Shown here piece after piece: positions 1-36,618 of a stretch of DNA of 36,618 nucleotides. Source of the stretch: a virus. Taxonomy: Duplodnaviria; Heunggongvirae; Uroviricota; Caudoviricetes. Below the pieces are notes generated by a model. It was not told the DNA's origin and did no database searches. It worked only from the letters and a program-made list of their open reading frames with translations. The stretch's first letter is position 1. Each line of letters opens with the position of its first letter. The DNA lies in the IMG/VR virus record IMGVR_UViG_2602041909_000007; one strand, written 5' to 3'. A program made the translations under genes and the position numbers.

Positions 1-1293
<1,293 letters not shown>

Positions 1294-1313
1294 TATCCAA
1301 CTTTTCTTACTCT

Positions 1314-1337
1314 AAAAAGCGCCTGCGGGCGCTTTAA
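1314..1337. terminator. Stem-loop terminator downstream of serS (stronger T-tract on minus strand)
   Basis: AAAGCGCC-tgcg-GGCGCTTT hairpin; plus strand followed by TTT only, minus strand followed by TTTTT. Confidence 0.5.
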
Positions 1338-1410
1338 GAAGAGGTTTAGCTATTTGAAAATAAATGGATTTTATTTTTAAGTGTCCATATAACGTCCATC
1401 TTTGAATGCA

Positions 1411-1445
1411 AAAAGCCCACAGATTCTATGTTGTGGGCTTTGTTC
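1411..1445. terminator. Bidirectional rho-independent terminator-like hairpin
   Basis: AGCCCACA-gattctatgt-TGTGGGCT stem-loop flanked by A-run upstream and TTTGTTCTT downstream. Confidence 0.5.
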
Positions 1446-1477
1446 TTGGTGTCCTCATGAGTGAGGGAACCAAAAAG

Positions 1478-1506
1478 AAAACCCGCAGTTTTTACGCTGC
1501 GGGTTT
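1478..1506. terminator. Bidirectional rho-independent terminator-like hairpin (likely 3' end of the hok-like transcript on the minus strand)
   Basis: AAACCCGCAG-tttttacg-CTGCGGGTTT stem-loop; minus strand has a long T-run (TTTCTTTTTG) after the stem. Confidence 0.55.
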
Positions 1507-1592
1507 CTGCTTTGGGATGTGTATAGGGTGCCTTATCGACCTTACCCTGGCAACCGATTGACGGGGAAGTTGCCTTCCCCGTCGCGGTTTTC

Positions 1593-1736
1593 TTACTGTC
1601 TACACTGTAAGAACGCCGCAAACTCCGCTCCCCAGAAGCTCATCCGTATCTCGCAGAGCGAACCCCGCAACATCCAGATGATGAGGATTGCCGTCACGCA
1701 CAGTGTGGTGATGGCGATTAGCGATTTTTGCGACAT
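1593..1736 (-). CDS. Hok/Gef-family type I toxin-like small membrane peptide (47 aa)
   Basis: Not in ORF track (<60 aa). My translation: MSQKSLIAITTLCVTAILIIWMLRGSLCEIRMSFWGAEFAAFLQCRQ. One N-terminal TM helix followed by SLCEIR and EFAAF motifs, as in Hok of R1 (…RKSLCEIR…EVAAF…). AGGAG Shine-Dalgarno 9 nt upstream of ATG. Confidence 0.6.
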   Translation of the reverse strand: MSQKSLIAITTLCVTAILIIWMLRGSLCEIRMSFWGAEFAAFLQCRQ

Positions 1737-1839
1737 AGCACTTGCTCCTTTTTCGGAGAGGCGCTAACCTACGACTTGCGAAGGTTGTATGGCTAGGGCC
1801 TCGGGTTAACGTTAAAGTTGACTCGGGGCCTTTCCACAT
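1600..1839 (-). CDS. Mok-like overlapping reading frame (modulator of killing) of the hok-like locus
   Basis: 79-aa ORF in a different frame starting ~100 nt upstream of the hok-like ATG and ending 7 nt past its stop, the characteristic mok/hok overlap geometry; no independent sequence conservation assessed. Confidence 0.35.
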   Translation of the reverse strand: MWKGPESTLTLTRGPSHTTFASRRLAPLRKRSKCYVAKIANRHHHTVRDGNPHHLDVAGFALRDTDELLGSGVCGVLTV

Positions 1840-2403
1840 CCGGCCTTCAGGTATTCCCTCCAGCCATCAGCCGAAAGGCACCCGCGCGAATTCTAGCCTG
1901 GTTTTTTCCCTTGTTTCAATCCGTTGAGGCCTGTCAGTCTTCTGATATAAAATTCCCGACCGCAGACATTATTCAGTCACGCATTTGATACATGCTTCCG
2001 CCGGCGTTCGCGCCGGTTTTTCGTCCTGTTGCTGCATAGATCGTCATGTGCGATCGAGGCGCGGCATTGATCCTTTTTTCAGTTTAATTTCGACTCTCAA
2101 TTTTACGCAGGCCGCGCCGCGTCTGGCTTCGTTGTTTGACGATTTTTCTATGCGATCCTTTCGCGATCGTGTCTTACCCCACGTAAAGCATGAAAACTCT
2201 TTTAATATCATGCGGTTTCGTTGACCCCGCCATTTATGGGATCGTAAAAAACCTCTCTGAAAACTGCAAAAAATTTCAAAACGTGAAATTTCAGATCTTC
2301 GCTTTTCCCTCAGTTGCTGCGCGGGCTGGCGGTCATTTTTGCACGGCAGAAAACTGAAAAAGTGTTTCGACACAAAACCCGCGGGTTGGAGGGGGTAGCG
2401 CGG

Positions 2404-2447
2404 TTTACGTCACCTCACGCTTTACGTCACACCGTTTACGTGGTGTG
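2404..2447. repeat. Three direct repeats TTTACGT(CAC) with a CACACC/GGTGTG inverted repeat; candidate integrase arm-type sites or regulatory repeats at the prophage left junction
   Basis: tttacgtcac at 2404-2413 and 2421-2430, tttacgtggtgtg at 2435-2447, spacing 17 and 14 bp. Confidence 0.3.
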
Positions 2448-2500
2448 CGCATACAGCGCCGGAATGGCACGCAGAACGCATTAATCAGGTGGCGGATATG

Positions 2501-2525
2501 AAAACGCACGACCGGAGCCGTGCGT
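2501..2525 (-). terminator. Rho-independent terminator of the minus-strand late tail operon
   Basis: On minus strand: CGTGCG stem, 8-nt loop, CGCACG stem followed by TTTT; ~40 bp downstream of the last tail gene stop (2565). Confidence 0.5.
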
Positions 2526-2564
2526 TGCGTGATGGGGCGTTTATGGGGGTTTTATGCCCGGTGA

Positions 2565-4262
2565 TCAGGCGATAAGGTCACAGTATTTTTCGCGCAGGCT
2601 CGTAGCCTGTTGGGCGTCTGCAGCAAGTTCGCTGCTGTTTGTTGGTGCGCCGGTGTTGCTGTGGGTGTGGTTTGCAGTGTGTGTGGCCAGCAACTGAACC
2701 AGATCCAGAATATCAATCAACAACGTCAGCAGATTAAGTCCGGATTTTTCCCGTGAGTCACCGCGACCAATAAATACTGTCGGGGCTGTAAACTCCAGAC
2801 CACCGTCCGCTCGGCATGTTCTGCGACCTCCCACGTTTTCAGTAAGGTCGTGTTCAATCGTGGATGTCGCCCCTTTGAGTTTAGTCAGCAAATCCTGCGC
2901 TACCATCTGGATATGCTCACTGGCTGCGATCGCGTAATGACCGGTAGTAAGGTGCTCTATTTGTCCTGCCATTAGCTTGCTGGTTCCCAGAACGCTGGTT
3001 ATATCGTTTGCCTGTACTGTGGTTGTTCTGGTTGTTGTTGTGCGTTCCTCCTGATCGCTGTTAATGGTTCGCCGGGCTGAATGTTCTCTGATTTGCTGGT
3101 CGGTTTCTCTGTGCCAGCTTCCGTCAGCCGTGACGCGCTGAAACACTTCTGCGCGCTGTTGCTGCAGCTGTTCGCCGGGCTTTACATCAGGCAGGTTATG
3201 GCCAGCGGGTAAGATTTGCCTGATAACGGGTTTGTCCGGACGTCCTTCAATGTTGGATATTTCCACGATGGTGCCTGCCGGTGGGTAGGCAAAACATCCC
3301 GCCTCACTGCCAGCCATGGGGACGGGGAGCGGTACTGCCGGGTAAACGGGCGTGTCGCTTTTATCGTTGCCGTTCTCATCAAGCAACTGCACATCGACGG
3401 CGTAGCGTGGGCGGAAACTGTCGGCCACATCGCCCAGGGTAGTTGGCTCCGTTGGCGCAATGACGCGCGCCAGCCGGGTATGTAGCGTACCGCTGGCCAG
3501 TTCCGGGAACTGTGTTTCCATTTGTCTGCGTAATGGTGATTTGGAAACAGGGTTACCCGTGGCGGTAAGGCGCTCCCATGTCAGGGTCATTTTCTCGTTG
3601 TTGAGGGCTACACGGGTAATGCGCCCGGCCGGTAGGTTCACGCCCGGTCGCACAGTTTCCATAAACATGATGTCGATGCTGTTTCCGCCGCTTTGCCCGA
3701 GTGTGTACTGTTGCGGAATATCCGGCATTGTAATACTGGCAAATCGTGAATCAGCTGCGCTTCCCACAAATACAGAACCGTCCGGCATAGGGTGCCAGAC
3801 GTAATCGCTGATACTGAATGCTCGCCCCAGTTGGCTGAGCAGTTGTGCTCCGCTGCCGCTGTGGGTGATGTAGGGAGTTGGTATACTGGCATAATCCGCA
3901 TCCGGAGTGATAAAAACGATACCGCTTTGTCGCCCCAGATTATCGAGTACCCCCCGCAACGTCGGGTGTTGCATGGAGCAAGGGAAATCAAAATCCAGCA
4001 CAGCAGCCGCTTCACGAATAAAAAGGCGACGTGAGCCATTTTCAGCAGGTTGATCGCGCTCAATGTAGCCGGAGAAATAGCGCCATGCTTCACCGTCACG
4101 GCCGAGATCAATTTGTACCATTGCGCCGGCAAGGCTGTGTTCGGGTGACAGATTGTTAACAGAAATGAAGCCACGACCGGCAGCATTCAGGGTAAGAACA
4201 AGGTTTATATCGGCAATTTCCACCCGTTCGCCATTAATAATACAGCGTTGTATTAATTTCAT
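2565..4262 (-). CDS. Putative baseplate central spike/hub protein (gpV/gpD class, extended, 565 aa)
   Basis: Last gene of tail operon; N-terminus (IINGERVEIADINLVLTLNAAGRGF) resembles OB-fold start of P2 gpV/gpD-type proteins as I recall them; C-terminal HTANHTHS (HxH) resembles metal-binding spike tip. Assignment from memory only. Confidence 0.4.
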   Translation of the reverse strand: MKLIQRCIINGERVEIADINLVLTLNAAGRGFISVNNLSPEHSLAGAMVQIDLGRDGEAWRYFSGYIERDQPAENGSRRLFIREAAAVLDFDFPCSMQHPTLRGVLDNLGRQSGIVFITPDADYASIPTPYITHSGSGAQLLSQLGRAFSISDYVWHPMPDGSVFVGSAADSRFASITMPDIPQQYTLGQSGGNSIDIMFMETVRPGVNLPAGRITRVALNNEKMTLTWERLTATGNPVSKSPLRRQMETQFPELASGTLHTRLARVIAPTEPTTLGDVADSFRPRYAVDVQLLDENGNDKSDTPVYPAVPLPVPMAGSEAGCFAYPPAGTIVEISNIEGRPDKPVIRQILPAGHNLPDVKPGEQLQQQRAEVFQRVTADGSWHRETDQQIREHSARRTINSDQEERTTTTRTTTVQANDITSVLGTSKLMAGQIEHLTTGHYAIAASEHIQMVAQDLLTKLKGATSTIEHDLTENVGGRRTCRADGGLEFTAPTVFIGRGDSREKSGLNLLTLLIDILDLVQLLATHTANHTHSNTGAPTNSSELAADAQQATSLREKYCDLIA

Positions 4263-4834
4263 GTTTTCCCTTCCTTTTTCACGCTCCCGATGCCAATCCA
4301 GTCCAGCCCGGAGCCAATACCATCATTGATATTTTTCCAGAAAGTTTCCTGGGTATTCATTCCTTTATCCGGCGTCAGCTCACTGCCGTTCTGTGTCTGC
4401 TGCTTTGCGATTGTTTTCTGTGAGCCACTGCGTGCCGATGCTTTTTCCGGCACGCTTAATTTTTCCCTGAGAGTAAAGGTGACCTGCCAGTGCATTTTCC
4501 CCTGTTGTTCCGTGGCATCAATGCCACCAGAAAATACCCCCTGTCGCATATTGATTGCCTTCGCGGTAGCGTTGGCAATGCGATACGTTTTTTTAGCTCC
4601 GTTACTTTCTGTTGCCTCCGCAAGCTGAAAAATACGGGTCAGAATAGCTTCATCGTTAAAGTCAATAACCCCCGACACGCGCAGCTCTTTAGCCTTGTTT
4701 CCCTGCTGAGCGCTCGTGGTGCTGGTTGACTGTCCGGACATATCTTTATCCGGTAGTTGCATGGTGGCGCTGACGGTGATGTTGCGCAGCAGAATGGCTT
4801 CCCCGTCAAGCGCAAGGACAATCATCTGGGTCAT
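4259..4834 (-). CDS. Hypothetical tail-associated protein (191 aa)
   Basis: ORF translationally coupled (ATGA-type overlap) to downstream spike/hub gene; position analogous to P2 gpU but no recognisable motif. Confidence 0.35.
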   Translation of the reverse strand: MTQMIVLALDGEAILLRNITVSATMQLPDKDMSGQSTSTTSAQQGNKAKELRVSGVIDFNDEAILTRIFQLAEATESNGAKKTYRIANATAKAINMRQGVFSGGIDATEQQGKMHWQVTFTLREKLSVPEKASARSGSQKTIAKQQTQNGSELTPDKGMNTQETFWKNINDGIGSGLDWIGIGSVKKEGKT

Positions 4835-5555
4835 GTAGTGCTTCCCTTAGTGATGAGAGATCATCGCCGACGAACAGCATCACAGCTGTAAAAACCCACT
4901 CGGGGTGTGGGATGTTTTTTTGTATCAGCGCTGCGGCCTGGCTAAGGACTCCCTTGTAGCAAAAGCGCCACACCGGGCAAAATTTTTGCCGGAGTGCGGC
5001 CTGCTGATCAGCGATTTCCTGTAGAGCTTTATCTCTCGCATTCGCGAACTGACGCAGCTCTGATGACAATGTTTCCGGTGATGTGGCAGCAGGAGTAGCT
5101 GCCTGTGCAATGGTTGCAGCCAGCGACATGCTGCGAGTGGTCTGTGTCGACAGCATTATCGGTTCCGGAAGTGATGTTACCGGTCTGGCGGGGATTTGCA
5201 TTCTGCTGATGGTCAGCGAAAGTTGGCTGGAGATCATACGGGACATTCTCCCTATTTCTGGCAACGGAAATGCACCTGAAAATTGTCTGGCAAGCGATAA
5301 AAACTCAGCAACAGACGGGGCGCAGAATAACATCGCCACGACGTCTTTTTGTGTATTTTCTGTCAGATACGGTAAAAGTGCAGACACTGCATTATCCGGA
5401 CTGAGGTAGCGTCCCGATGGTGTGGTATTCCCTGTATTTACTGACCATGGGTGGAAACAAATCATTGAACTGGTGATGTTTATGGGGTGCGGGTGCAGAA
5501 TTGAGACCGCCCAGTCAGGGCGGTTATTTTTATTGTCTTTCAAATGAATATTCAT
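4806..5555 (-). CDS. Hypothetical protein (249 aa), possibly fiber-associated/chaperone
   Basis: ORF in tail operon between second fiber set and tail hub genes; no motif recognised. Confidence 0.35.
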   Translation of the reverse strand: MNIHLKDNKNNRPDWAVSILHPHPINITSSMICFHPWSVNTGNTTPSGRYLSPDNAVSALLPYLTENTQKDVVAMLFCAPSVAEFLSLARQFSGAFPLPEIGRMSRMISSQLSLTISRMQIPARPVTSLPEPIMLSTQTTRSMSLAATIAQAATPAATSPETLSSELRQFANARDKALQEIADQQAALRQKFCPVWRFCYKGVLSQAAALIQKNIPHPEWVFTAVMLFVGDDLSSLREALHDPDDCPCA

Positions 5556-5587
5556 AGGTGTGTGAGATATTGCTGGTACTTGCGCGG

Positions 5588-6646
5588 TTACTGTCGGGAG
5601 GTTGTGGGTTGGTTATATAACTCCGTTGCAAAAATTATCTCTCCTTCAGTAAATGGGATATCTCCGTCAGGCTGTGTCGTAAAACTCTGTGAGACAGTCG
5701 TCCAGCTGTTTGTGTCAGCCTGCACGTCATTCTCTGTAACTGTTTCTCCTTCATGGCTTCCGCTTTTTACACTCCAGGCCAGGCAGTTATTGGGGGCGTC
5801 CGCACTGCGATAAGTGACAGCCGCCATAACTGCGACCAGATCGCCATTGCTGTTATCTACCGCACCAAACGTAACCTGTGCCGCCTCCGGGGACGGTGAG
5901 AGCATCAGGTATCCGGCATCACTGTCAGAGGTGTTCAGTCCCGTGACGATATCTTTATCCAGCGAGTTTTTCGCACTCCCCCCGGTAAATGCGGTTACCG
6001 GGCTGTATCTGACCTCAATAGCCCCAAGCAGGGCGGGTTCCGCGCTGTTATTTTTTCCGTATGCCACTGTTCCACAGTACATATCACCCAGCATTAACGT
6101 GCCGGATGCACCCGATGAAAAAATATTGTCACCACTACCAATACTCACCTGAATTTTGTCAGTCCGGTCATCTGATACATAAAACGATGTATTTCCAGCT
6201 AATGAGCGGTTGCAGTACAGACTGGCTGAGACATAGCCGTTTTCGTTTCGCGTTGCGAAAATTTCATAGTAATAACTGGCTGCTTCATCAGGATACGGGG
6301 TTGTAAATGAATAGCCATTAATCCTGATGTGGGATGGCGAAGATGAATATTTCTTTCCCGCACTTAATGTCAGACGAAATCCCAGCTGTACAGCTGAGGT
6401 CTTTAAGTCCGGGAGTGTGCTGTACAGTGTGACATATGAGGGTGTCGTAAAAATCAGCCCCGTTCTTTCTACAGTATTTACGGCCTGAGTGCCACGACAG
6501 ACGGATGTTACAGAACCGGACATATCATTGATAAGCGTGACACCGTTTTCGTTCAGTGCTGAAATAATATTTGTTGAATAATAGTTCTCGCACAATCCCT
6601 CATTCGCCGGAATTTGTCGGAACCCTTCCAGATTAATAATATTCAA
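5588..6646 (-). CDS. Hypothetical Ser/Thr/Gly-rich protein (352 aa), possible distal receptor-binding part of second fiber
   Basis: ORF immediately downstream of the second fiber-like gene; S/T/G/N-rich composition typical of beta-rich adhesin-like domains; lower GC than flanking tail genes by eye. Confidence 0.35.
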   Translation of the reverse strand: MNIINLEGFRQIPANEGLCENYYSTNIISALNENGVTLINDMSGSVTSVCRGTQAVNTVERTGLIFTTPSYVTLYSTLPDLKTSAVQLGFRLTLSAGKKYSSSPSHIRINGYSFTTPYPDEAASYYYEIFATRNENGYVSASLYCNRSLAGNTSFYVSDDRTDKIQVSIGSGDNIFSSGASGTLMLGDMYCGTVAYGKNNSAEPALLGAIEVRYSPVTAFTGGSAKNSLDKDIVTGLNTSDSDAGYLMLSPSPEAAQVTFGAVDNSNGDLVAVMAAVTYRSADAPNNCLAWSVKSGSHEGETVTENDVQADTNSWTTVSQSFTTQPDGDIPFTEGEIIFATELYNQPTTSRQ

Positions 6647-6670
6647 AATATTCCCCTTATTTAGTTTCTA

Positions 6671-7528
6671 TTAAGCAGCAGATAAAACCGCAAACTGCAG
6701 TACTGCCCGAGCTACTGTCAGTGGCTCATTGGTTTGATATGCTGGTACAAATAAGCCCCTGTTAACTGTTACCGGCTCGCTCATCAGACGTCCGGTTTGT
6801 AATTGTATGTTGTTAATGGTTATCGGTTCGTGGATGGTGCGCCCTGACTGAACAAATTTTCTATTAATTGTTAAAGGCCCCCTTGTCTGTTCCCCGGACT
6901 GAAGCAGTACTCTGCTGATTTGCAAAGCGGGCTTTGGTGTTTCCGGTGGGAGGGCAGGTTTTTCCTGAGGAGCCATTGCCTCAGCTATCAACATTCGTAC
7001 AAATCTGGCATTAACAATCTCAAGACCCGCTGCATCATTTGGTGGTGTTGGAGTGGTTGGCGCTCCGGAAAACGACGGGCTTTCCAGAGGAGCCTTGTTA
7101 TTTAATTCAGAAAAAAAATCTACCTGCCAGCTTTGTGGCGGAGTAGTAATATGAGCGATTTGTGGCAGTCCGCTAAAAATGATGGCGAAATTCCGGATGA
7201 TAGTTTCTCCTGTGTGTTTATGTCGAACAGGACCACTTATAACTCCGCACAATGTGTTACTGGCTTGATGAACCAGGCAAATCCAGTCGTAGTTGAAATT
7301 TTCGTTATCAGCAACAATGGCACTACACACAATGCTGTTTTGATCCAGTTTTCCATAATGTAGGTTATTTACCCTGTGCGTGATTTTTTCAGGAGGAATA
7401 ATCGTATCATCTCTGGAAGGCTCTCTCTCCATCAGTGCAAAAACAATAGCGTCAGGGCGTGCCGGTAAATTACTGGCGGTGCATTCAGCAACCCATTTCT
7501 CAAATGCTTTCGTCAACAGTGCGCTCAT
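6671..7528 (-). CDS. Second tail-fiber-like protein: paralog of fiber N-terminal (baseplate attachment) domain plus C-terminal tandem repeats (285 aa)
   Basis: N-terminal ~150 aa align with N-terminus of the 566-aa fiber (shared E.W.A, PARPD..VF, F.Y.WI.L, IRNF, WQVDF); C-terminus has ~14-aa tandem repeats (LQSGEQTRGPLTIN / VQSGRTIHEPITIN / LQTGRLMSEPVTVN). Confidence 0.55.
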   Translation of the reverse strand: MSALLTKAFEKWVAECTASNLPARPDAIVFALMEREPSRDDTIIPPEKITHRVNNLHYGKLDQNSIVCSAIVADNENFNYDWICLVHQASNTLCGVISGPVRHKHTGETIIRNFAIIFSGLPQIAHITTPPQSWQVDFFSELNNKAPLESPSFSGAPTTPTPPNDAAGLEIVNARFVRMLIAEAMAPQEKPALPPETPKPALQISRVLLQSGEQTRGPLTINRKFVQSGRTIHEPITINNIQLQTGRLMSEPVTVNRGLFVPAYQTNEPLTVARAVLQFAVLSAA

Positions 7529-7534
7529 TACTTC

Positions 7535-8086
7535 TTAATTCTCGCTAATGTTCTGCGGTAATTCTGGCCATACAATCGCGGCATACGATGCTTTATCTGT
7601 AACCTGGCTGAATGTCATCTCCCGTAACGTTTTTGTATAAATACGGCAGGCTTTCAGTTTTTCCCTGTCTTCGTCGCTGATTAATCCCAGCAGCAGGTCT
7701 TTTTCCCATTCGCTGGTCATGATGCTGACCTGTTTTAACAGTGCATCACGCTCATCTTCCGCTTTAAGTTTGTAGTCGAAGATAAAATTGCCATCGCGGT
7801 AAAACCAGTAACCAGGCACGGTAATACGGCGATTAGCGGTAATATCCGGAACTTCAATAACACTGGCATTACGGGGTTCAATGCCTGTCACATCCTTACC
7901 GACCCACACCACGCGCCCGTCCCCGGTGTAAACCATTTTTATTGTGTCGCTGGCAAAGTTCTTCTGTTCTTCATGCCAGTTTTTGTCGTCTTCCGAAAAA
8001 AGCCAGGTGACACCATATTGTTTTGTCATCTGATATTGTTCTGCGGTTTTCGGATTGCCCGCAGTAATATTTTTTAAATGCAACAT
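7535..8086 (-). CDS. G: Tail fiber assembly protein (P2 gpG/Tfa family)
   Basis: Starts MLHLKNITAGNPKTAEQYQMTK..., strongly reminiscent of P2 gpG ([22 protein letters not shown]...); located directly downstream of fiber gene. Confidence 0.85.
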   Translation of the reverse strand: MLHLKNITAGNPKTAEQYQMTKQYGVTWLFSEDDKNWHEEQKNFASDTIKMVYTGDGRVVWVGKDVTGIEPRNASVIEVPDITANRRITVPGYWFYRDGNFIFDYKLKAEDERDALLKQVSIMTSEWEKDLLLGLISDEDREKLKACRIYTKTLREMTFSQVTDKASYAAIVWPELPQNISEN

Positions 8087-8088
8087 TG

Positions 8089-9789
8089 TTAAACACTCGT
8101 CACGTTATACCAGGTGCCGTTAATCAGTTTCTGAAGCGGTCGGTAATACACGCCGCCGATGTTATCTGCCGAATTACTTCCGGTTTCCTGCACATTAATA
8201 CCAGATAATCCATGGCCTGAAGGTGAGCGAAATGTCCAGGATATCTGGTTACCTCCCGGGTTGTAATACATTTCGGAACCATAACGCACATCCTGCACGC
8301 CGCCTGTTTTGGTCTGGTAACGGGCATCAAAGTTTCCGTAGTCTGACGGTGTTACCCGCCCGGTAACGTTTACAGGTTTATTGCTCTGAATGCTGCCACT
8401 CTGAAAACGCAACACATGCACGCTATTGGCATAAACATCCAGCAGGCCATCACCATTCTGTTTCAGGCCGGTATCGTTATCCCCGAAAGCAATTGAGTTT
8501 CCGCCCAGCGCGTTCTGAACGCCGATACCCAGCGCACCATTCACCTGAGAGCCGCCACCAACAGACACTTTATGCGACATGGATATTTCACCCGTCCGCA
8601 GATTAATAGTGAACGGACGCAGGGGACCAATATCGCCATTTTCGCCCTGATTTTCCCGGGTGGGAATAAGATGCAGGCACTCTTCAGAGCGACGAAAAAT
8701 CAGGCCAAAAGCTTCGTTGAAAATCCTCAGTGCATTAACACCACGGACTTTCAGCTCCCCGGTCATGGTGTCGCCGTCGCGCTCAACAGCGTCTTTTGCT
8801 TTATCCATTGCAGCTTTTACTGCCTTTGATGTGGCGGCGCGGTCTTCTGCGTCGCTGTCGGTGGAGTTGCTGTACTGCGCAAAGCCTTTCTCCTTCAGTG
8901 TTGCATCCGGATGATGGCGGGATTTTTCGTGCTCTGCCAGTGCATTGCTCTGTTCCTCGTCGGGTGTCTCCGGGCGCAGGTCCTGTGGGCCGTCTCCTGT
9001 CATTTTTGCAAGTGGCGCGACAAAGTGTCGGAAGCCGTTACCGTCTGTATAAGACGCATGTTCCTGGCGGGCGCAGAACGTAAAAACGGTATTCCATTCG
9101 CCGGTAACAAATCCCTGCCAGCTTGCATCAATCCAGAGGGTATCCCCGACCGCAGCCGGCAGGCTGTAAGGTTTGCGCAGACTGACGCGCAGACCTCCCA
9201 CATAACCCACGCCGGCGGCAACAGTAGCGGTACCATCCTGATAGCTGACCTGAAAACCATCCCCCAGAAAAGCGGCTTCACCGTAGTGATCAAACGCCAG
9301 CAGCCGGCGGGCCTCATCCATTCCTGCAAGGCGCGCAGTGAAATCAATCTGCCAGACATCGGCGCTGACATCGATATGCATTGCTGCGGCCGCGCCGTCA
9401 AACTCCATGGAAAATGTGCGGATCAGGTTGTTTCCCTGCACGCCGTTCGCTGTTTTAATTTTTTGCTGACGAGGTGTGTGTGCAATCATGCAGAGCACGC
9501 CGCTTTCTTCGTTCAGCAGACCGATCCAGTTGTATTCGAAGTCGCCGACTGTCGTGTCCAGAATGATGGAAAACGCGGTCGCGTTCGGCGACAGGAGGCC
9601 GTACTGGGTGACCGGCGCACGATACTGAATCATGGATTCATCAGGGAGTATCTCATCGCGGGGGATCTCTGCGGATTCATCCTGTCCCGGAATATATCCA
9701 AAAACAAATGTATCCGGGCGCGCAGGTTTTCCACTGATGAGCTGATTCGCACACCAGTGTTCGTACTGTTCAGTAATAATTGTGCTCAT
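8089..9789 (-). CDS. Tail fiber protein (566 aa) with P2 gpH/T4 gp37-like C-terminal receptor-binding region
   Basis: Position between gpI-like and Tfa; contains phage tail fibre repeat-like segment (KAAMDKAKDAVERDGDTMTGEL) and Gly-rich C-terminal region; N-terminal domain shared with 6671..7528 product. Confidence 0.85.
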   Translation of the reverse strand: MSTIITEQYEHWCANQLISGKPARPDTFVFGYIPGQDESAEIPRDEILPDESMIQYRAPVTQYGLLSPNATAFSIILDTTVGDFEYNWIGLLNEESGVLCMIAHTPRQQKIKTANGVQGNNLIRTFSMEFDGAAAAMHIDVSADVWQIDFTARLAGMDEARRLLAFDHYGEAAFLGDGFQVSYQDGTATVAAGVGYVGGLRVSLRKPYSLPAAVGDTLWIDASWQGFVTGEWNTVFTFCARQEHASYTDGNGFRHFVAPLAKMTGDGPQDLRPETPDEEQSNALAEHEKSRHHPDATLKEKGFAQYSNSTDSDAEDRAATSKAVKAAMDKAKDAVERDGDTMTGELKVRGVNALRIFNEAFGLIFRRSEECLHLIPTRENQGENGDIGPLRPFTINLRTGEISMSHKVSVGGGSQVNGALGIGVQNALGGNSIAFGDNDTGLKQNGDGLLDVYANSVHVLRFQSGSIQSNKPVNVTGRVTPSDYGNFDARYQTKTGGVQDVRYGSEMYYNPGGNQISWTFRSPSGHGLSGINVQETGSNSADNIGGVYYRPLQKLINGTWYNVTSV

Positions 9790-25772: not shown

Positions 25773-26732
25773 TTACTCCTTGTCCATTGCGTACAGCCCA
25801 TTAACCAGAGCAAACTGTGGCACCCCGTCCGCGATGAAAGTCGCATTAACTCCGCAGGCTTCGCGGATAGCGGGTGCCACAATCTCCGCTCCTCCACCTA
25901 CAACCATCACCCGCCCGTAACCCGAAAAAACCGCCAGCGCGCGGATCACGCGTTGTTTCAGTGTTTCCTCCTTTTCACGAATAACTGCCATCAGGCTGGC
26001 GTAATGCGCGTCATTGTGGATGTGCTGGCGCAGCCAGGCTTCATCGTGGCGATGTTCGATAATGGTATTGGCGATGTGGTGACTGGTGCGCATACCGTTG
26101 GTGGCCATCACCGACAGCACGGCATCGGCCATCAGAGAAACGCCTACGTGTGGATCGCAAAACACCTGGCTGATACCTGCCAGTTGCCCCTGAACCTTTG
26201 CCACATCCAGCGTGGTTCCGCCCAAATCCACAATCAGCAGGGATTCAAACGGACTCATGTCAGCCAGTGCCTTAAAACCAGCCGGAATGGATTCAGGCAT
26301 AACCCGCACGTTACGGATAGTGAATGCCTCGCCGTTCTGGTACTCCACCGGGCGCATAACGTTCGCTTTTTTGCGGTTGATGTTGGCCATGTCCGGCTGT
26401 GCGTTTGTGTCGAAATACTCGCTCAGTGGCAGGGTAACAACCACATCCACTTCCTGTGGTGTGATGCCTGATTTGACCAGCGCGTGGTGAATGGCGATTA
26501 CATTCACATCGCTGTACTGGTATTGCGTGTCGGTCGTCTGGACAAAGCGATCGCTGACCGGATCAAAACCATAGCGCACGCCATCAAGCATGTAGTTCGC
26601 GGGCTGCGTGCCACCGAACGGCGCAGACCATTCCGACTTGAAGCTGTTCGGGCTGATGGCGTTGCGGCGTTCGCCGTTCTCAGTCCATGCCAGCTTGATG
26701 TTGGTGGAGCCGTCGTCGATACAAATTTTCAT
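25773..26732 (-). CDS. parM: ParM/StbA-family actin-like segregation ATPase (319 aa)
   Basis: Near-colinear similarity to plasmid R1 ParM as recalled: IDDGSTNIKL, ISPNSFK, YSDVNV.A.HHAL, VMPESIPAG, DLGGTTLD, GGGAE, LVNG.Y. Confidence 0.9.
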   Translation of the reverse strand: MKICIDDGSTNIKLAWTENGERRNAISPNSFKSEWSAPFGGTQPANYMLDGVRYGFDPVSDRFVQTTDTQYQYSDVNVIAIHHALVKSGITPQEVDVVVTLPLSEYFDTNAQPDMANINRKKANVMRPVEYQNGEAFTIRNVRVMPESIPAGFKALADMSPFESLLIVDLGGTTLDVAKVQGQLAGISQVFCDPHVGVSLMADAVLSVMATNGMRTSHHIANTIIEHRHDEAWLRQHIHNDAHYASLMAVIREKEETLKQRVIRALAVFSGYGRVMVVGGGAEIVAPAIREACGVNATFIADGVPQFALVNGLYAMDKE

Positions 26733-26763: not shown

Positions 26764-26876
26764 TTTACGGGATTTTTAAATCCCGTTTTCGCCTGTTTTG
26801 TGCGCGCTTCATATATCGCGGCGCGTTTTTTGCTCATTTACGGGATTTGTGAATCCCGTTTCTGTCTGTTTTTTGT
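26764..26876. repeat. Two ~38-bp direct repeats each containing palindrome ACGGGATTT(n)AAATCCCGT; candidate parC-like centromere / ParR binding sites
   Basis: tttacgggatttttaaatcccgtttt (26764-26789) and tttacgggatttgtgaatcccgtttc (26838-26863); first copy is intergenic upstream of parM, second lies in the last ~20 codons of the gpA-like ORF. Confidence 0.4.
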
Positions 26877-29631
26877 TTCTACTGGTCAGGCCACCCCGCA
26901 GCAGGTCTGCTTTGCGGCGGGCGCGTTCAGTTGTTTCACTGATTCTCTGTGCGTGCTCTGCGTCACGGATGGCGCGCAGCATGTCAGAAAGCACGGTAAC
27001 GGGGGTTTTCATGGTGTTCTGGTCCTGCTGAAGTGTGGATGCCAGACGTGCGGCGGCTTCGGGGTCTGATGCCCCCAGCTGTGCCAGATAGCTGGCGACC
27101 GGGTTATGGCGGATCTCCGTGCTGCTTACGCCGTGATTACGGCTCAGGTGCTGCCAGAGCTGCGTGATTCGGCTGTCCGGGCGGGTATCCGGTTTGCGTA
27201 CAATTTCAAATCCCTGTGGTGCAATGATGCTGCCGTCAACGTACAGGCTGCCGCCCCGTAACAGGTGCTGCATCTGCTGTTCACCGATATGCAGGCCGAG
27301 AGATTCGGCAGATTCCCGCCATTCTTTAGCGAGTAATTCGTGGTTATCAGGCAAAGGCCGTGGCTGTTTGCGGCTCTGTGTCCAGTTCTGCATTTCATCA
27401 CTGCTGTTTTTTGCCTGCTTGTCACGCAGCGAACGCATCAGAGCCCGGCGTTCGTGCCGTTTCAGTGAGCGCATCCATTCGTTCACTTCAACGCCGTCAG
27501 GGAGCTGCGGCCACGGTGCTGGCCGTTCTTTCGGCTGTTCTGTCCCGTTGTTGTCCGTTTCCTGTACACGGGGACAGTTATTGCCACGAGTCCAAGGGGC
27601 GGCAGGGCCGCCCTGAAGGTCAAAACCATTTTCGCGGGCGCTGTCTTCCGCTTCCGGTTTACGTCTTACCAGCTTCCAGTTATCCGGATGTGTGCACACA
27701 CGGGAAGACTCCCCGATGAGTGGTGACCAGATCCCGTAAATCTGTACGCTCTGTTCGCCGTAATCGTTCAGCTCATCTGCGAGGTCGTAGGCGGTGCGAA
27801 TCAGGTAGTCTTTGCGTGGAACAAGTACGCCGCCCTGTTTTTCAATGTAGGAGGCAAAACACCCGGCATCAGCGGCAGCGAGCACTGCATCCATTGCGTC
27901 ATCCTTCAGCCGTTGCGGGCCTTCCGGGTTGCGTGCCATCTGGCTGGCAAGGCGGCGCAGTTCACGCCACACCTGACGGGAGGGGATGCCAAAGAACTGG
28001 AACTGGCGGACCCGGTGAAGGCGCGCCCAGCCGATGGCGCGCTCCACGCTCTCGGCCATTGATTTTCCGGTTTCGTGGTCAACGCGTGGCTTGCCCGTTT
28101 TCGGGTCGATACCATCCACGGCGCGGCTGTCCAGGTTCTTTCCGATGTAGGTGGCGATGTAGCTGGTTGGCGTGCCTTTTGAGCCGTCGACGTACTCCGC
28201 TTTAAAACGCGGAGTTATGTCATCGCCCAGCTCGTGGCGGTCTTCCTGAATGGCAATATCGCAGACGTGGGACACGATGGTTTCAATCTCGTCCGGATGT
28301 GCAAAGACCATCATATGCCAGTGCACAGTGCCGTCATGGTGAGGCTCCACCGTGCGGATGCCATACCAGCGAAGACCGTCGCGGTTCAGTTTTTTGCGGA
28401 CCGCCGCAAAAAACGTGTTAACCAGGTAATCGCTGGAGTCGCGCATGGTGGCCCCGTTCCATTTGGGATTCGGATGACCGTTCTCCGTTGTTGCGTGGTA
28501 TTTTGACGGGCAGGTGACAGTCAGAAACACCGCTCTGTCGCCACGGGCTTCGGCCAGAAGTTCCAGCCCCTTCATGGTGGCCATCATTTCTGCCTTACGG
28601 TGAACCGGGTTACTTACTCCCGCGTAATACACCGTCTCGAGATCAATCGTGAACCCGTCTTCATTTTCCAGCATGAAACTTTTCAGGAAATCGCGTGTTT
28701 TCTCGCGCTGTGCGCGAAACTCGCTTAATGCGTCCTGGCTCAGATAGGGCGATGTTTTTCTGGAAACCAGACAGGCGGCGCGGAGTTGTTCTTCTCTCCA
28801 CTCGCAACGTAACAGCCACAGTTTGCGTTTCCACCATTCCGCACAGGTCAGGCGAAGGACTGCGCCCGGCAGCAGCTCCGTGTCCGGTTCGTTCCTCCGG
28901 TCTTTATCTGTTGTCAGTGCGTCATAATGTGGAGGCATGATGTGCAGGTGTAACGCCATGCGGGCCAGCATCTGATACGTCTTCAGCGTTACATCCATGG
29001 TCAGTTCGCCATCGGTCGCGCCAAAGCCATCGCAGAGTTTTTCGAAGGTGCTGCTGAACATCGCCGCCGTCATGGTGGCCAGCGTCTGTATCTGGTGTTT
29101 GTTGAGCTGCGGCAGGTAAAGCAAATCGTCCAGGCGTTCGCGTCCGGCAAGGGAGCGATAACCCGGTGTCAGCCAGCGTCCGTCAGTGCGATCCAGACGT
29201 TCGAATATTTTGCGCAGGGTTCCGCGTGCATAGCGTTCCGCCTGCCAGCTCTTTTTGCCTTTCCGGCGATCGGCTTCCTGTTTTTTGCGCAGGAAGGAGA
29301 GGTGGCGAATAAGCGGATCGCGCAGATAGGACGGCAGCAGGCGCAGCGAGGCCATGGCTTCATCCACCGCGCCGCGTGCCTGTTTTCTGGCGTCTCCTGC
29401 CAGTGTGATGGTTTTGTCCTGTTTTTCCTGTGCATCCAGGCTTTTATTAATCAGGTTGCCCAGCGGCGTGGCGGAGAACGCCGCATCAGCCTTTTCCTGT
29501 CGGCGCTCGTTCTCTGCCCGGTAGGCATCCAGCCAGGAGGAAAGCGCGGATTCAGGTGCGGGGATCCCCGTTCCTTCACGCCCCACTGCGTGGCGCGGTT
29601 GTTGCCAGTCCCTGATGTACTCTGTCGTCAT
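26809..29631 (-). CDS. A: Replication initiation endonuclease (P2 gpA-like HUH rolling-circle initiator, 940 aa)
   Basis: HUH-type motif TVHWHMMVF and catalytic-Tyr region TSYIATYIGKNLD; position in early operon upstream of head genes as in P2; ~180 aa longer than P2 gpA. Confidence 0.8.
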   Translation of the reverse strand: MTTEYIRDWQQPRHAVGREGTGIPAPESALSSWLDAYRAENERRQEKADAAFSATPLGNLINKSLDAQEKQDKTITLAGDARKQARGAVDEAMASLRLLPSYLRDPLIRHLSFLRKKQEADRRKGKKSWQAERYARGTLRKIFERLDRTDGRWLTPGYRSLAGRERLDDLLYLPQLNKHQIQTLATMTAAMFSSTFEKLCDGFGATDGELTMDVTLKTYQMLARMALHLHIMPPHYDALTTDKDRRNEPDTELLPGAVLRLTCAEWWKRKLWLLRCEWREEQLRAACLVSRKTSPYLSQDALSEFRAQREKTRDFLKSFMLENEDGFTIDLETVYYAGVSNPVHRKAEMMATMKGLELLAEARGDRAVFLTVTCPSKYHATTENGHPNPKWNGATMRDSSDYLVNTFFAAVRKKLNRDGLRWYGIRTVEPHHDGTVHWHMMVFAHPDEIETIVSHVCDIAIQEDRHELGDDITPRFKAEYVDGSKGTPTSYIATYIGKNLDSRAVDGIDPKTGKPRVDHETGKSMAESVERAIGWARLHRVRQFQFFGIPSRQVWRELRRLASQMARNPEGPQRLKDDAMDAVLAAADAGCFASYIEKQGGVLVPRKDYLIRTAYDLADELNDYGEQSVQIYGIWSPLIGESSRVCTHPDNWKLVRRKPEAEDSARENGFDLQGGPAAPWTRGNNCPRVQETDNNGTEQPKERPAPWPQLPDGVEVNEWMRSLKRHERRALMRSLRDKQAKNSSDEMQNWTQSRKQPRPLPDNHELLAKEWRESAESLGLHIGEQQMQHLLRGGSLYVDGSIIAPQGFEIVRKPDTRPDSRITQLWQHLSRNHGVSSTEIRHNPVASYLAQLGASDPEAAARLASTLQQDQNTMKTPVTVLSDMLRAIRDAEHAQRISETTERARRKADLLRGGLTSRNKKQTETGFTNPVNEQKTRRDI

Positions 29632-35556: not shown

Positions 35557-35625
35557 CTCTACACATTGAGCGAATTACATATCGCAAGGAGTGTTTAGTT
35601 AATTTATCCGTTGGAGGGGCTAATC

Positions 35626-36618
35626 ATGTCGATTAAGCAACTCAAAGACGGACGTTATCAGGTCGATGTCAGACCGCAGGGGGCGGAAGGAAAGCGGATT
35701 CGAAAAATCTTTGCCCTGAAATCAAAGGCTCAGGAGTTTGAGAAGTATGTGTTACAGAACTTTCATGACAAGCCATGGCAGGCTAAGCCAGCTGATCAGC
35801 GGCGATTATCAGAGCTGCTTGATGCGTGGTGGATGCTTGATGGGCGTAATCAGGCTTACGGGGATAGCTACAGGGTTAGGCTAGGGAAGGTTGTTCGTGA
35901 AATGGGAGATCCTCGCGCCAGTCAGATGACGCGAAAATTTATGCTTGAATATCGGTCAGAGAAATTACAGGCCGGATTAATGCCGTCCAGTATTAATCGT
36001 GACTTATGCGTACTGTCTACCATGTTCACGGTGCTGATTGAAGCTGAGGTCTTTCACAACGCGAACCCTGTACGCGGTATACGAAAACTGAAAGTTCAGA
36101 ACACAGAGATGGCCTTTCTTTCTGATGATGAGATTGAACGGCTTCTTGAGCGACTGGAGGGTGATGCGCGTCGTGTTGCCATTCTGTGTCTTTCTACTGG
36201 TGCCCGATGGAGTGAAGCATCGGAACTACGTGGAGAGCATATCGTTGGCAACCGGGTGACGTTCTTTAACACCAAAAACGGAAAATCCCGTTCGGTTCCT
36301 GTGGCGGATTCGGTCGTGCCTCTGATTAAAACCCGTCGAACGGGGTTATTGTATCAGGTTGATTATCTGAAGTTCCGGGAGATTCTTCAGGAGGTGAAAC
36401 CGGATTTGCCGAAGGGGCAGGCTACGCATGTCATGCGTCATACATTTGCCACACACTTTATGATGAATGGCGGAAATATTGTTACGTTGCAACGAATCCT
36501 GGGGCACGCAACGATTCAGCAAACAATGACGTACGCTCATTTTTCGCCGGACTTTTTACTGGACGCGATCAACTTTAATCCGCTGGCTGAAAGTGTCCAT
36601 AAACTGTCCATCGATTAG
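35626..36618 (+). CDS. int: Tyrosine integrase, P2 Int family (330 aa)
   Basis: MSIKQLKDGRYQVDVRP… and catalytic region ATHVMRHTFATHFMMNGGNIVTLQRILGHATIQQTMTYAHF closely resemble P2 Int (MAIKKLDDGRYEVDIRP…LRHSFATHFMINGGSIITLQRILGHTRIEQTMVYAHF); ATG 35626 preceded by GGAGGGG SD. Confidence 0.9.
   Translation: MSIKQLKDGRYQVDVRPQGAEGKRIRKIFALKSKAQEFEKYVLQNFHDKPWQAKPADQRRLSELLDAWWMLDGRNQAYGDSYRVRLGKVVREMGDPRASQMTRKFMLEYRSEKLQAGLMPSSINRDLCVLSTMFTVLIEAEVFHNANPVRGIRKLKVQNTEMAFLSDDEIERLLERLEGDARRVAILCLSTGARWSEASELRGEHIVGNRVTFFNTKNGKSRSVPVADSVVPLIKTRRTGLLYQVDYLKFREILQEVKPDLPKGQATHVMRHTFATHFMMNGGNIVTLQRILGHATIQQTMTYAHFSPDFLLDAINFNPLAESVHKLSID

Follow-up and report, generated by a model that had tools for sequence, protein, structure and literature searches.

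The window analysed here is the whole of a 36,618-nucleotide stretch of viral DNA, IMG/VR record IMGVR_UViG_2602041909_000007. It carries an E. coli prophage of the Peduoviridae. The tail is of the type found in Haemophilus phage HP1, and all of its genes are on the minus strand. Downstream of the canonical tail fibre gene (fibre 1) and its assembly gene (Tfa), three open reading frames (ORFs) encoding 285, 352 and 249 residues are confirmed on the same strand (Table 1); an earlier note, made from the sequence alone, had read them as a second, modular fibre set. The first two, called fibre 2 below, are a short anchor ending in 17-residue repeats and a separately encoded protein of lectin-like fold. 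Because such a repeat-plus-lectin pair is attached to four kinds of anchor in other prophages, the segment made up of a joint motif, repeats and lectin gene probably serves host recognition, as a portable module that had not been described.

The N-terminal part of the 285-residue protein belongs to the tail-collar family PF12571, which matches residues 3-138 (cut-off 23 bits) and is also above its gathering score in the 566-residue fibre 1. The two proteins had been said to share some 150 N-terminal residues, and BLASTP aligns residues 1-142 of the first with residues 1-154 of the second at 33% identity (E=2e-21). Residues 1-182 are 71% identical to the full-length fibre 2 of related prophages. 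The joint motif, at about residues 148-183, has the consensus KAPLxSPxFxGxPTTPTPxxDAxGxEIxNAxFVR. The short tandem repeats that had been noticed before the stop prove to be five units of exactly 17 residues each (ALQISRVLLQSGEQTRG, PLTINRKFVQSGRTIHE, PITINNIQLQTGRLMSE, PVTVNRGLFVPAYQTNE and PLTVARAVLQFAVLSA). Their summed BLOSUM62 score is 190, compared to -140 ± 25 in shuffled sequences (z=13; 0 of 20,000 shuffles reached 190), and 17 is the only period between 10 and 24 that scores positively. Tandem Repeats Finder detects no tandem repeat in the DNA of this region; the 17-residue periodicity is thus maintained at the protein level only.

The 285- and 352-residue ORFs share a reading frame. 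A single gene, broken or read through, is ruled out by the tandem stop codons TAA-TAG, by the Shine-Dalgarno sequence AAGGGG placed ahead of the TTG start of the second ORF, and by the relatives of the 352-residue protein, which are always stand-alone with a conserved N-terminus. The locus therefore has a true two-gene arrangement. The spacers of the gene run measure 6, 24 and 32 nt, the first being that between the Tfa stop and the start of the anchor.

The 352-residue protein is rich in serine, threonine and glycine (30% in total), as had been remarked, and its N-terminus shows neither a signal peptide nor a membrane segment. Its sole family match is phrog_8291, of "unknown function"; Pfam (E<=0.01), NCBIfam and PADLOC return none. 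The predicted structure is confident (predicted local distance difference test, pLDDT, 88.5) and consists of two β-sandwich domains. The structures that it matches have concanavalin A-like (ConA-like) carbohydrate-binding or carbohydrate-active folds, so that, as modelled, the protein is of the concanavalin A-like lectin/glucanase fold, a β-sandwich jelly-roll that superposes on lectins, carbohydrate-binding modules and PL7 or GH16 enzymes. Compared with predicted viral structures, the whole model resembles siphophage proteins of about 350 residues (Foldseek E=1e-14, template modelling score ~0.65).

The family is very small and enterobacterial. Clustering at 90% identity gives 26 groups, all of them from E. 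coli or Raoultella and 40-93% identical to the copy of the window. An exhaustive profile search of 1.84 billion proteins yields 19 representatives; full-length members are stand-alone proteins of about 350 residues and none is fused to a fibre. Similarly, all 24 aligned members are stand-alone, and nearly all share one highly conserved N-terminus, MNIINLEGFRQIPAN. A profile search of genome contigs with the family alignment gave no confirmed locus. The gene occurs in 63 of 5,426 complete E. coli genomes, where it is always annotated "hypothetical protein". Carrier genomes often have several places with the gene (median 2, up to 5), and some strains may have more than one prophage carrying the module. 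Several carriers (B7A, E2528-C1, TD225-C4 and O166:H15 strains) are, we presume, enterotoxigenic.

Table 1. Features of the second-fibre region and of the surrounding prophage
Feature	Position	Strand	Basis or remark
Proximal half of fibre 2: short anchor of 285 aa	6671-7528	-	PF12571, 36.8 bits
Tail-collar-type N-terminal (baseplate attachment) domain, aa 1-142	7103-7528	-	PF12571; similarity to fibre 1
Joint motif KAPLESPSFSGAPTTPTPPNDAAGLEIVNARFVR, ~aa 148-183, cassette recombination boundary	6980-7087	-	DNA identity breakpoints
Five tandem 17-residue repeats, aa 200-284, xPLTINRxxLQSGxxxx, end cap LQFAVLSAA; proposed docking/shaft element	6674-6931	-	Period statistics
Gene junction	6647-6673	-	TAA 6671-6673, TAG 6668-6670, AAGGGG 6653-6658, six bases 6647-6652; TTG start 6644-6646
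Stand-alone 352-aa protein with two domains of lectin fold, proposed as distal subunit that binds the receptor	5588-6646	-	
HP1 orf33 homologue, 249 aa, tail/baseplate backbone gene, outside the second-fibre set	4806-5555	-	Homology to HP1 orf33/ESSI2 gp03
Fibre 1 assembly protein (Tfa), 183 aa, outside the module	7535-8086	-	PF02413 Caudo_TAP E=8e-22; phrog_136
Fibre 1, canonical tail fibre, 566 aa, outside the module	8089-9789	-	PF12571, PF03406, gp37_trimer (Pfam); many PHROG tail-fibre families
I-like protein	9786-10421	-	
Baseplate J	10418-11605	-	
DUF2590 protein	between tape measure protein and baseplate J in gene order	-	
Tape measure protein	11935-14031	-	
HP1 orf34 homologue, 191 aa, baseplate complex protein, outside the module	4259-4834	-	PF25759 E=5e-53
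HP1 orf35 homologue, 565 aa, baseplate protein, outside the module	2565-4262	-	phrog_2258 E=4e-233; position as in HP1/ESSI2
Hok/Gef-like ORF, 47 aa (MSQKSLIAITTLCVTAILIIWMLRGSLCEIR...)	1593-1736	-	Between serS and last tail gene
ParM/StbA-type plasmid segregation actin	25773-26732	-	

The second-fibre slot and its cassettes

The cultured relatives HP1 and Escherichia phage ESSI2_ev040 have a single fibre, in the order tape measure protein, DUF2590, J, I, fibre, Tfa, orf33, orf34, orf35. In an E. coli prophage lineage, an extra fibre gene is inserted between Tfa and orf33. The earlier note had placed this site at the Z/fun position of P2, which does not hold, the tail backbone being of the HP1 type (orf27-35). 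In a set of complete genomes, region 4200-8100 is matched in 215 of 20,395 replicon records, that is, in 212 of 5,426 genomes. The N-terminal 145-182 residues of fibre 2 are kept across strains (71% identity), while the remainder is exchanged from strain to strain: relatives carry single-chain fibres of 430, 619 or 645 residues in the same slot, with or without a DUF4376 protein after them, which is the swapping of cassettes that had been anticipated. Another short E. coli allele (P0028 and P0029, 350 residues) shares the N-terminus and the joint motif and continues into a non-repetitive C-terminal domain of about 165 residues.

Relative to strain A36, the variable block extends over window positions 5504-7016. 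It takes in the C-terminal ~115 residues of the anchor, the entire 352-residue gene and some 17 codons at the start of the orf33 homologue; identity stops at 7017, within the joint motif. The allele with the 285- and 352-residue ORFs is present in only 11 complete genomes (99.7-100% identity over a 3.9-kb query). Strains with this prophage include E. coli E200139 (GCF_052908285.1), 100% identical to the window over 4200-8100, and RIVM_C019217.

The third ORF, previously suggested to encode a chaperone, does not belong to the set, because it is an orf33 homologue that is also found in phages with one fibre. The 249-residue protein matches HP1 orf33 with E=6e-19, ESSI2_ev040 gp03 with E=2e-41 and phrog_1677 with E=7e-40, which makes it a member of the orf33 family, and it is 86% identical in A36, where the cassette differs. 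Its homology and its presence in single-fibre phages rule out a chaperone specific to the cassette. A GC-rich hairpin followed by a T-run (5505-5525, plus strand) coincides exactly with the right-hand edge of the variable cassette, in the first codons of this gene, and the annotated start of the ORF may be derived from the cassette.

In region 4200-10000, inverted repeats of more than 21 nt are absent, as are significant direct repeats of the DNA, and neither invertase nor reverse transcriptase domains are found in the scanned tail-region ORFs and the larger prophage ORFs. By these scans, the slot is thus neither a shufflon of the Mu G type nor a diversity-generating retroelement, in agreement with what had been stated from the sequence.

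Recurrence of the pair and exchange of its parts

Related loci and homologous proteins retrieved for comparison bear the labels L0xx and P0xxx, respectively. The neighbouring gene was inspected for every member of the 352 family whose locus could be retrieved, with a hidden Markov model of the repeat domain (E<=1e-30) to recognise partner ORFs. The window and 29 other loci have an ORF that ends in the repeat domain. For 27 of them, a gap of 6-25 nt separates its end from the start of the 352-family gene; L014 and L018 have a fibre and Tfa pair between the two. Pairing with a protein having repeats of 17-19 residues, usually immediately upstream, is found in every locus with enough sequence except L005/L006; in this lambdoid prophage, the homologue is preceded by a 257-residue Stf-N protein and a 64-residue ORF in which a degenerate remnant, PLVIK ... 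PVLTG, is left. Searches in the opposite direction, starting from two repeat domains, return only contigs in which the 352 family is present too or whose sequence breaks off at the repeat. When the repeat alignment was used as a profile against a set of 5.8 billion proteins, five matches were obtained among the 8,000 word-sharing candidates that were scored.

Across loci, the repeat tail is carried by four Pfam anchor types. These are the gpH-type PF12571 in the window, the lambda Stf-type N-terminus PF08400 in lambdoid and Raoultella prophages (L007, L019, L033-36), the Mu gp48-type wedge PF10076 (L010-L032, L014, L025-27), of which one subtype has an added immunoglobulin-like domain, and the P2 gpI wedge PF09684 (L038). 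The Stf-type anchors of L007, L019 and L033 have the joint motif ahead of the repeats, as in the window; in the decayed copy of L035, at 4323-4970 (P0148), the joint motif and repeats are fused instead to an unrelated sequence, which takes the place of the Stf-type N-terminus. In L038, a bona fide P2-like prophage, gpI is extended to 300 residues by repeats of about 18 residues (SVPVKAINGTxINAGNVL ... YLLVTEV) and is directly followed by the distant family member P0155, then by a normal gpH/Tfa pair. On a short contig, P0158 is preceded by the repeat flavour of this distant branch (PVK..YG ... MMISSEV). The two distant homologues thus follow a repeat of another flavour, which indicates that the deep branches of both partners co-diverge. 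The arrays are capped by L-x-F-A-V/F in the main branch and by LLVTEV or MMISSEV in the distant one.

The number of repeats varies from 4 to 7 across loci, and the near-identical sister prophages L025 and L026 differ by exactly one 17-residue unit. Such variation is expected of a fibrous shaft. In the Mu- and P2-type loci, the pair lies inside the structural operon, with the baseplate wedge gene on one side and the ordinary fibre gene on the other, and it therefore appears as an extra device in these tails too. Two loci are disrupted: in the Mu-type prophage L020 (6373-7070), the 352-family gene is closely followed downstream by a conventional tail fibre gene that IS1-like insA/insB ORFs interrupt, and L029 (4983-6048) has a decayed copy in which the 352 homologue is in two pieces.

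The DNA comparisons reveal two kinds of exchange. Window positions 7087-5680 are 90% identical to the lambdoid Stf-type locus L019, and since this identity starts in the joint motif, at 7087, the cassette moves as a unit through that motif. Positions 6647-5610 are 91% identical to the Mu-type locus L010, over the 352-residue gene only, the repeat domains being 35% identical; the lectin gene can thus also be exchanged alone between differing repeat rails. This lone exchange suggests that docking would rely on generic features of the rail.

Proposed device and alternatives

We consider it somewhat probable, given the gene arrangement, its recurrence and exchange among anchors, the full-length fibres of relatives in the same slot, the varying repeat number, the modelled fold and the lack of a signal peptide, membrane segment or defence-system match in the 352-residue protein, that fibre 2 is a portable receptor-binding module with two components, a docking repeat and a separate lectin-like tip. 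The tail-collar domain of the anchor, a paralogue of that of fibre 1, would plug the protein into the baseplate, presumably at a site of its own, and the C-terminus would present five β-type repeats and a hydrophobic cap. The separately translated 352-residue protein would dock on this array, probably via its conserved N-terminus, stay on the virion and recognise, possibly cleave, surface carbohydrate. The phage would thereby gain a second specificity beside that of fibre 1. Recombination would have grafted the joint motif, repeats and lectin gene onto different baseplate anchors in different types of phage. From the modular second fibre outlined in the earlier note, the proximal anchor with a separate distal protein is retained, as the pair recurs on four unrelated anchors, and the 249-residue chaperone is dropped. 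A bolder version appears decidedly unlikely to us. Since anchors of the gpH, Stf, gp48 and gpI types all carry the rail, it would offer a natural, universal plug-and-play connector with which myo- and siphovirus tails and tailocins could be retargeted, and act as a docking rail of tunable valency in which each repeat (times three chains) binds one lectin subunit, so that the repeat number of this "bottle-brush" fibre tunes avidity.

Several observations weigh against the two-component module. No member of the family, distant ones included, is found in 50,697 phage records; with no carrier among sequenced cultured phages, the role in an infectious particle is only putative. Many of the retrieved loci are near-identical, so that the independent architectures number about 7 rather than about 30. 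The AlphaFold2 (AF2) monomer model of the anchor has moderate confidence over residues 1-118 only and leaves the repeats unfolded (pLDDT<35), which may be due to a shallow alignment. In favour of the module, the full-length two-domain fold of the 352-residue protein resembles that of gp26 of Achromobacter phage AchV4 (AchV4_0026, 352 residues), encoded just after a short tail fibre gene, and those of ~350-residue proteins of the Casjensviridae-like siphophages JS26, Kokobel1, JC01 and Enc34. AchV4 gp26 was detected in virions by liquid chromatography-tandem mass spectrometry (PMC7996906). Against it, the likeness to AchV4_0026 is at the level of the fold only (13% identity, hhalign probability 0.2%), and the fibre encoded upstream, AchV4_0024, does not have the 17-residue repeats. 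Lastly, the 352-residue gene is directly downstream of the fibre, where relatives carry a DUF4376 chaperone-like gene, which makes a chaperone role positionally plausible.

According to this last possibility, the 352-residue protein would be a dedicated assembly chaperone of the repeat domain, analogous to Tfa or DUF4376 proteins and required for trimerisation or folding without binding the receptor itself, and the 285-residue fibre would act alone. The constant association of the family with the repeat domain and the unfolded state of the latter in the monomer model are compatible with it, and the Tfa of L038 itself joins PF02413 and DUF4376. We regard this alternative as unlikely, because the 352-residue protein has no similarity to either chaperone family (PF02413 Caudo_TAP and PF14301 DUF4376, ~175-200 residues), is double the size of Tfa proteins known so far and, as modelled, consists of two β-sandwich domains of the lectin type, while the 285-residue protein lacks a globular tip able to bind a receptor. 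Moreover, alleles of the 352-residue gene with 90% identity go with repeat domains that share only 35%, unlike the tight matching of chaperone and tip in Tfa systems. Tfa proteins of the Mu and P2 types can remain at the tip of the fibre, and the chaperone and tip roles are thus not exclusive.

In a variant of the two-component module, the 352-residue protein would be a polysaccharide-degrading enzyme borne by the virion, such as a lyase or glycanase, and act as a small depolymerase mounted on the anchor instead of as a passive lectin. Non-catalytic carbohydrate-binding modules and lectins match the same fold equally well, no enzyme family is matched by sequence and the identity to any enzyme is 7-13%, which makes the variant very unlikely. 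Still less credible is a decayed, truncated fibre beside an unrelated cargo gene (moron) whose product is no part of the particle: the family is known from prophages only, all its copies are annotated hypothetical and morons often occupy variable loci beside tail fibre genes, but both ORFs are intact, with 99.5-100% conservation across 11 genomes, their boundary is clean and translationally coupled, the pairing is seen again on four anchors and in tails of four types, it sits among structural genes in the Mu- and P2-type loci, and PADLOC defence models return no family for the 285-, 352-, 249-, 191- and 565-residue proteins.

Apart from fibre 2, the tail region conforms to HP1 in gene order. 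Sequence searches against solved structures give no significant match for the five proteins just listed; the 565-residue one has a faint VgrG-like stretch. The rest of the prophage encodes a P2-type capsid, scaffold, terminase and portal, the gpA replication protein (26809-29631), ParM and an integrase (35611-36618), so that a ParM/StbA-type actin is encoded within a P2/HP1-like prophage that also has an integrase and gpA. The left end of the window is occupied by serS (1-1293), after which the prophage begins. The tail end of the prophage also adjoins serS in strain A36 (window 1-2565 compared with L001, NZ_CM128604.1, and L003/L004), whereas it adjoins raiA in E200139, RM10740 and ECL27977, together with com and a DNA methyltransferase gene (a mom-like pair) that the serS-side copies do not have. 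These com/mom genes and the differing insertion sites of relatives had raised the suspicion of a Mu-like transposable phage, which is ruled out by the P2-type capsid, scaffold, terminase, gpA and integrase. Relatives have an annotated Hok/Gef gene at the position of the 47-residue ORF (2394-2537 in L002); an Rfam scan of the prophage end (1250-2600) gave no match, including no antisense RNA.

Comparison with known systems

Like P2 gpH/gpG and HP1 orf31/orf32, fibre 2 has a PF12571 N-terminal domain and is encoded in the same late tail operon, within the backbone order of HP1 and ESSI2. Unlike HP1 and ESSI2, which have one fibre, the prophage has a second, split one, in which the anchor stops after the repeats and the distal part is a separate, non-fibrous protein of lectin fold. 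An E. coli lineage of HP1-like prophages thus has two fibre sets, compared to one in the reference phages HP1 and ESSI2-like. In contrast to the fibre and Tfa pairs of P2 and HP1, no Caudo_TAP chaperone follows the split fibre.

In the baseplates of the lactococcal phages TP901-1 and Tuc2009, the BppU anchor holds separate BppL receptor-binding proteins, and BppA is an accessory carbohydrate binder. The principle is the same as that proposed here: an adaptor is anchored in the baseplate, and its C-terminal part bears a carbohydrate-binding subunit that has a gene of its own. These are siphovirus baseplates of phages of Gram-positive hosts, with no sequence relationship to the present module, and we know of no 17-residue repeat docking array in them.

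Receptor-binding proteins that are branched or mounted on adaptors are also known in coliphages: LtfA/LtfB of the T5-like phage DT57C, gp63.1/gp66 of G7C, the adaptor of SP6 and K1-5, TSP1-4 of CBA120 and gp34-37 of T4. In these systems, recognition is split over polypeptides joined by conserved docking domains, so that cassettes can be exchanged and a virion can have more than one specificity, as may be the case here. They differ in that their distal parts are fibres or β-helix tailspikes, compared to a ~350-residue subunit predicted to have two β-sandwiches, and in the docking element, which here is a short tandem repeat that is also fused directly to Mu gp48-like and P2 gpI wedge proteins.

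The repeats themselves recall those of other attachment fibres. The shafts of the adenovirus fibre and of reovirus sigma1 are triple β-spirals, with repeats of 15-17 residues, alternating hydrophobic residues and a conserved Pro/Gly turn. The likeness to these viral attachment fibres is one of pattern only, since the sequences are unrelated.

Receptor-binding modules set the host range of temperate coliphages, of engineered phages and of tailocins. If the two-component module is real, the joint motif, the repeat rail and the 350-residue lectin-fold protein make up a compact cassette, about 1.4 kb long, that has been naturally transplanted between tails of the P2/HP1, Mu and lambda types and would be a ready-made connector for retargeting. 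It would also give a function to phrog_8291, whose members are unannotated in RefSeq, and explain the C-terminal extensions of some gp48-like and gpI-like baseplate wedge proteins. A literature search on the accessions, phrog_8291, HP1 orf34 and second fibres in P2-like prophages found no description of the module. Adaptor-mounted and multi-subunit receptor-binding systems are well known, and the principle is therefore not new; what is new is an unannotated rail of 17-19-residue repeats together with a stand-alone ConA-like protein, common to tails of the HP1/P2, Mu and lambda types.

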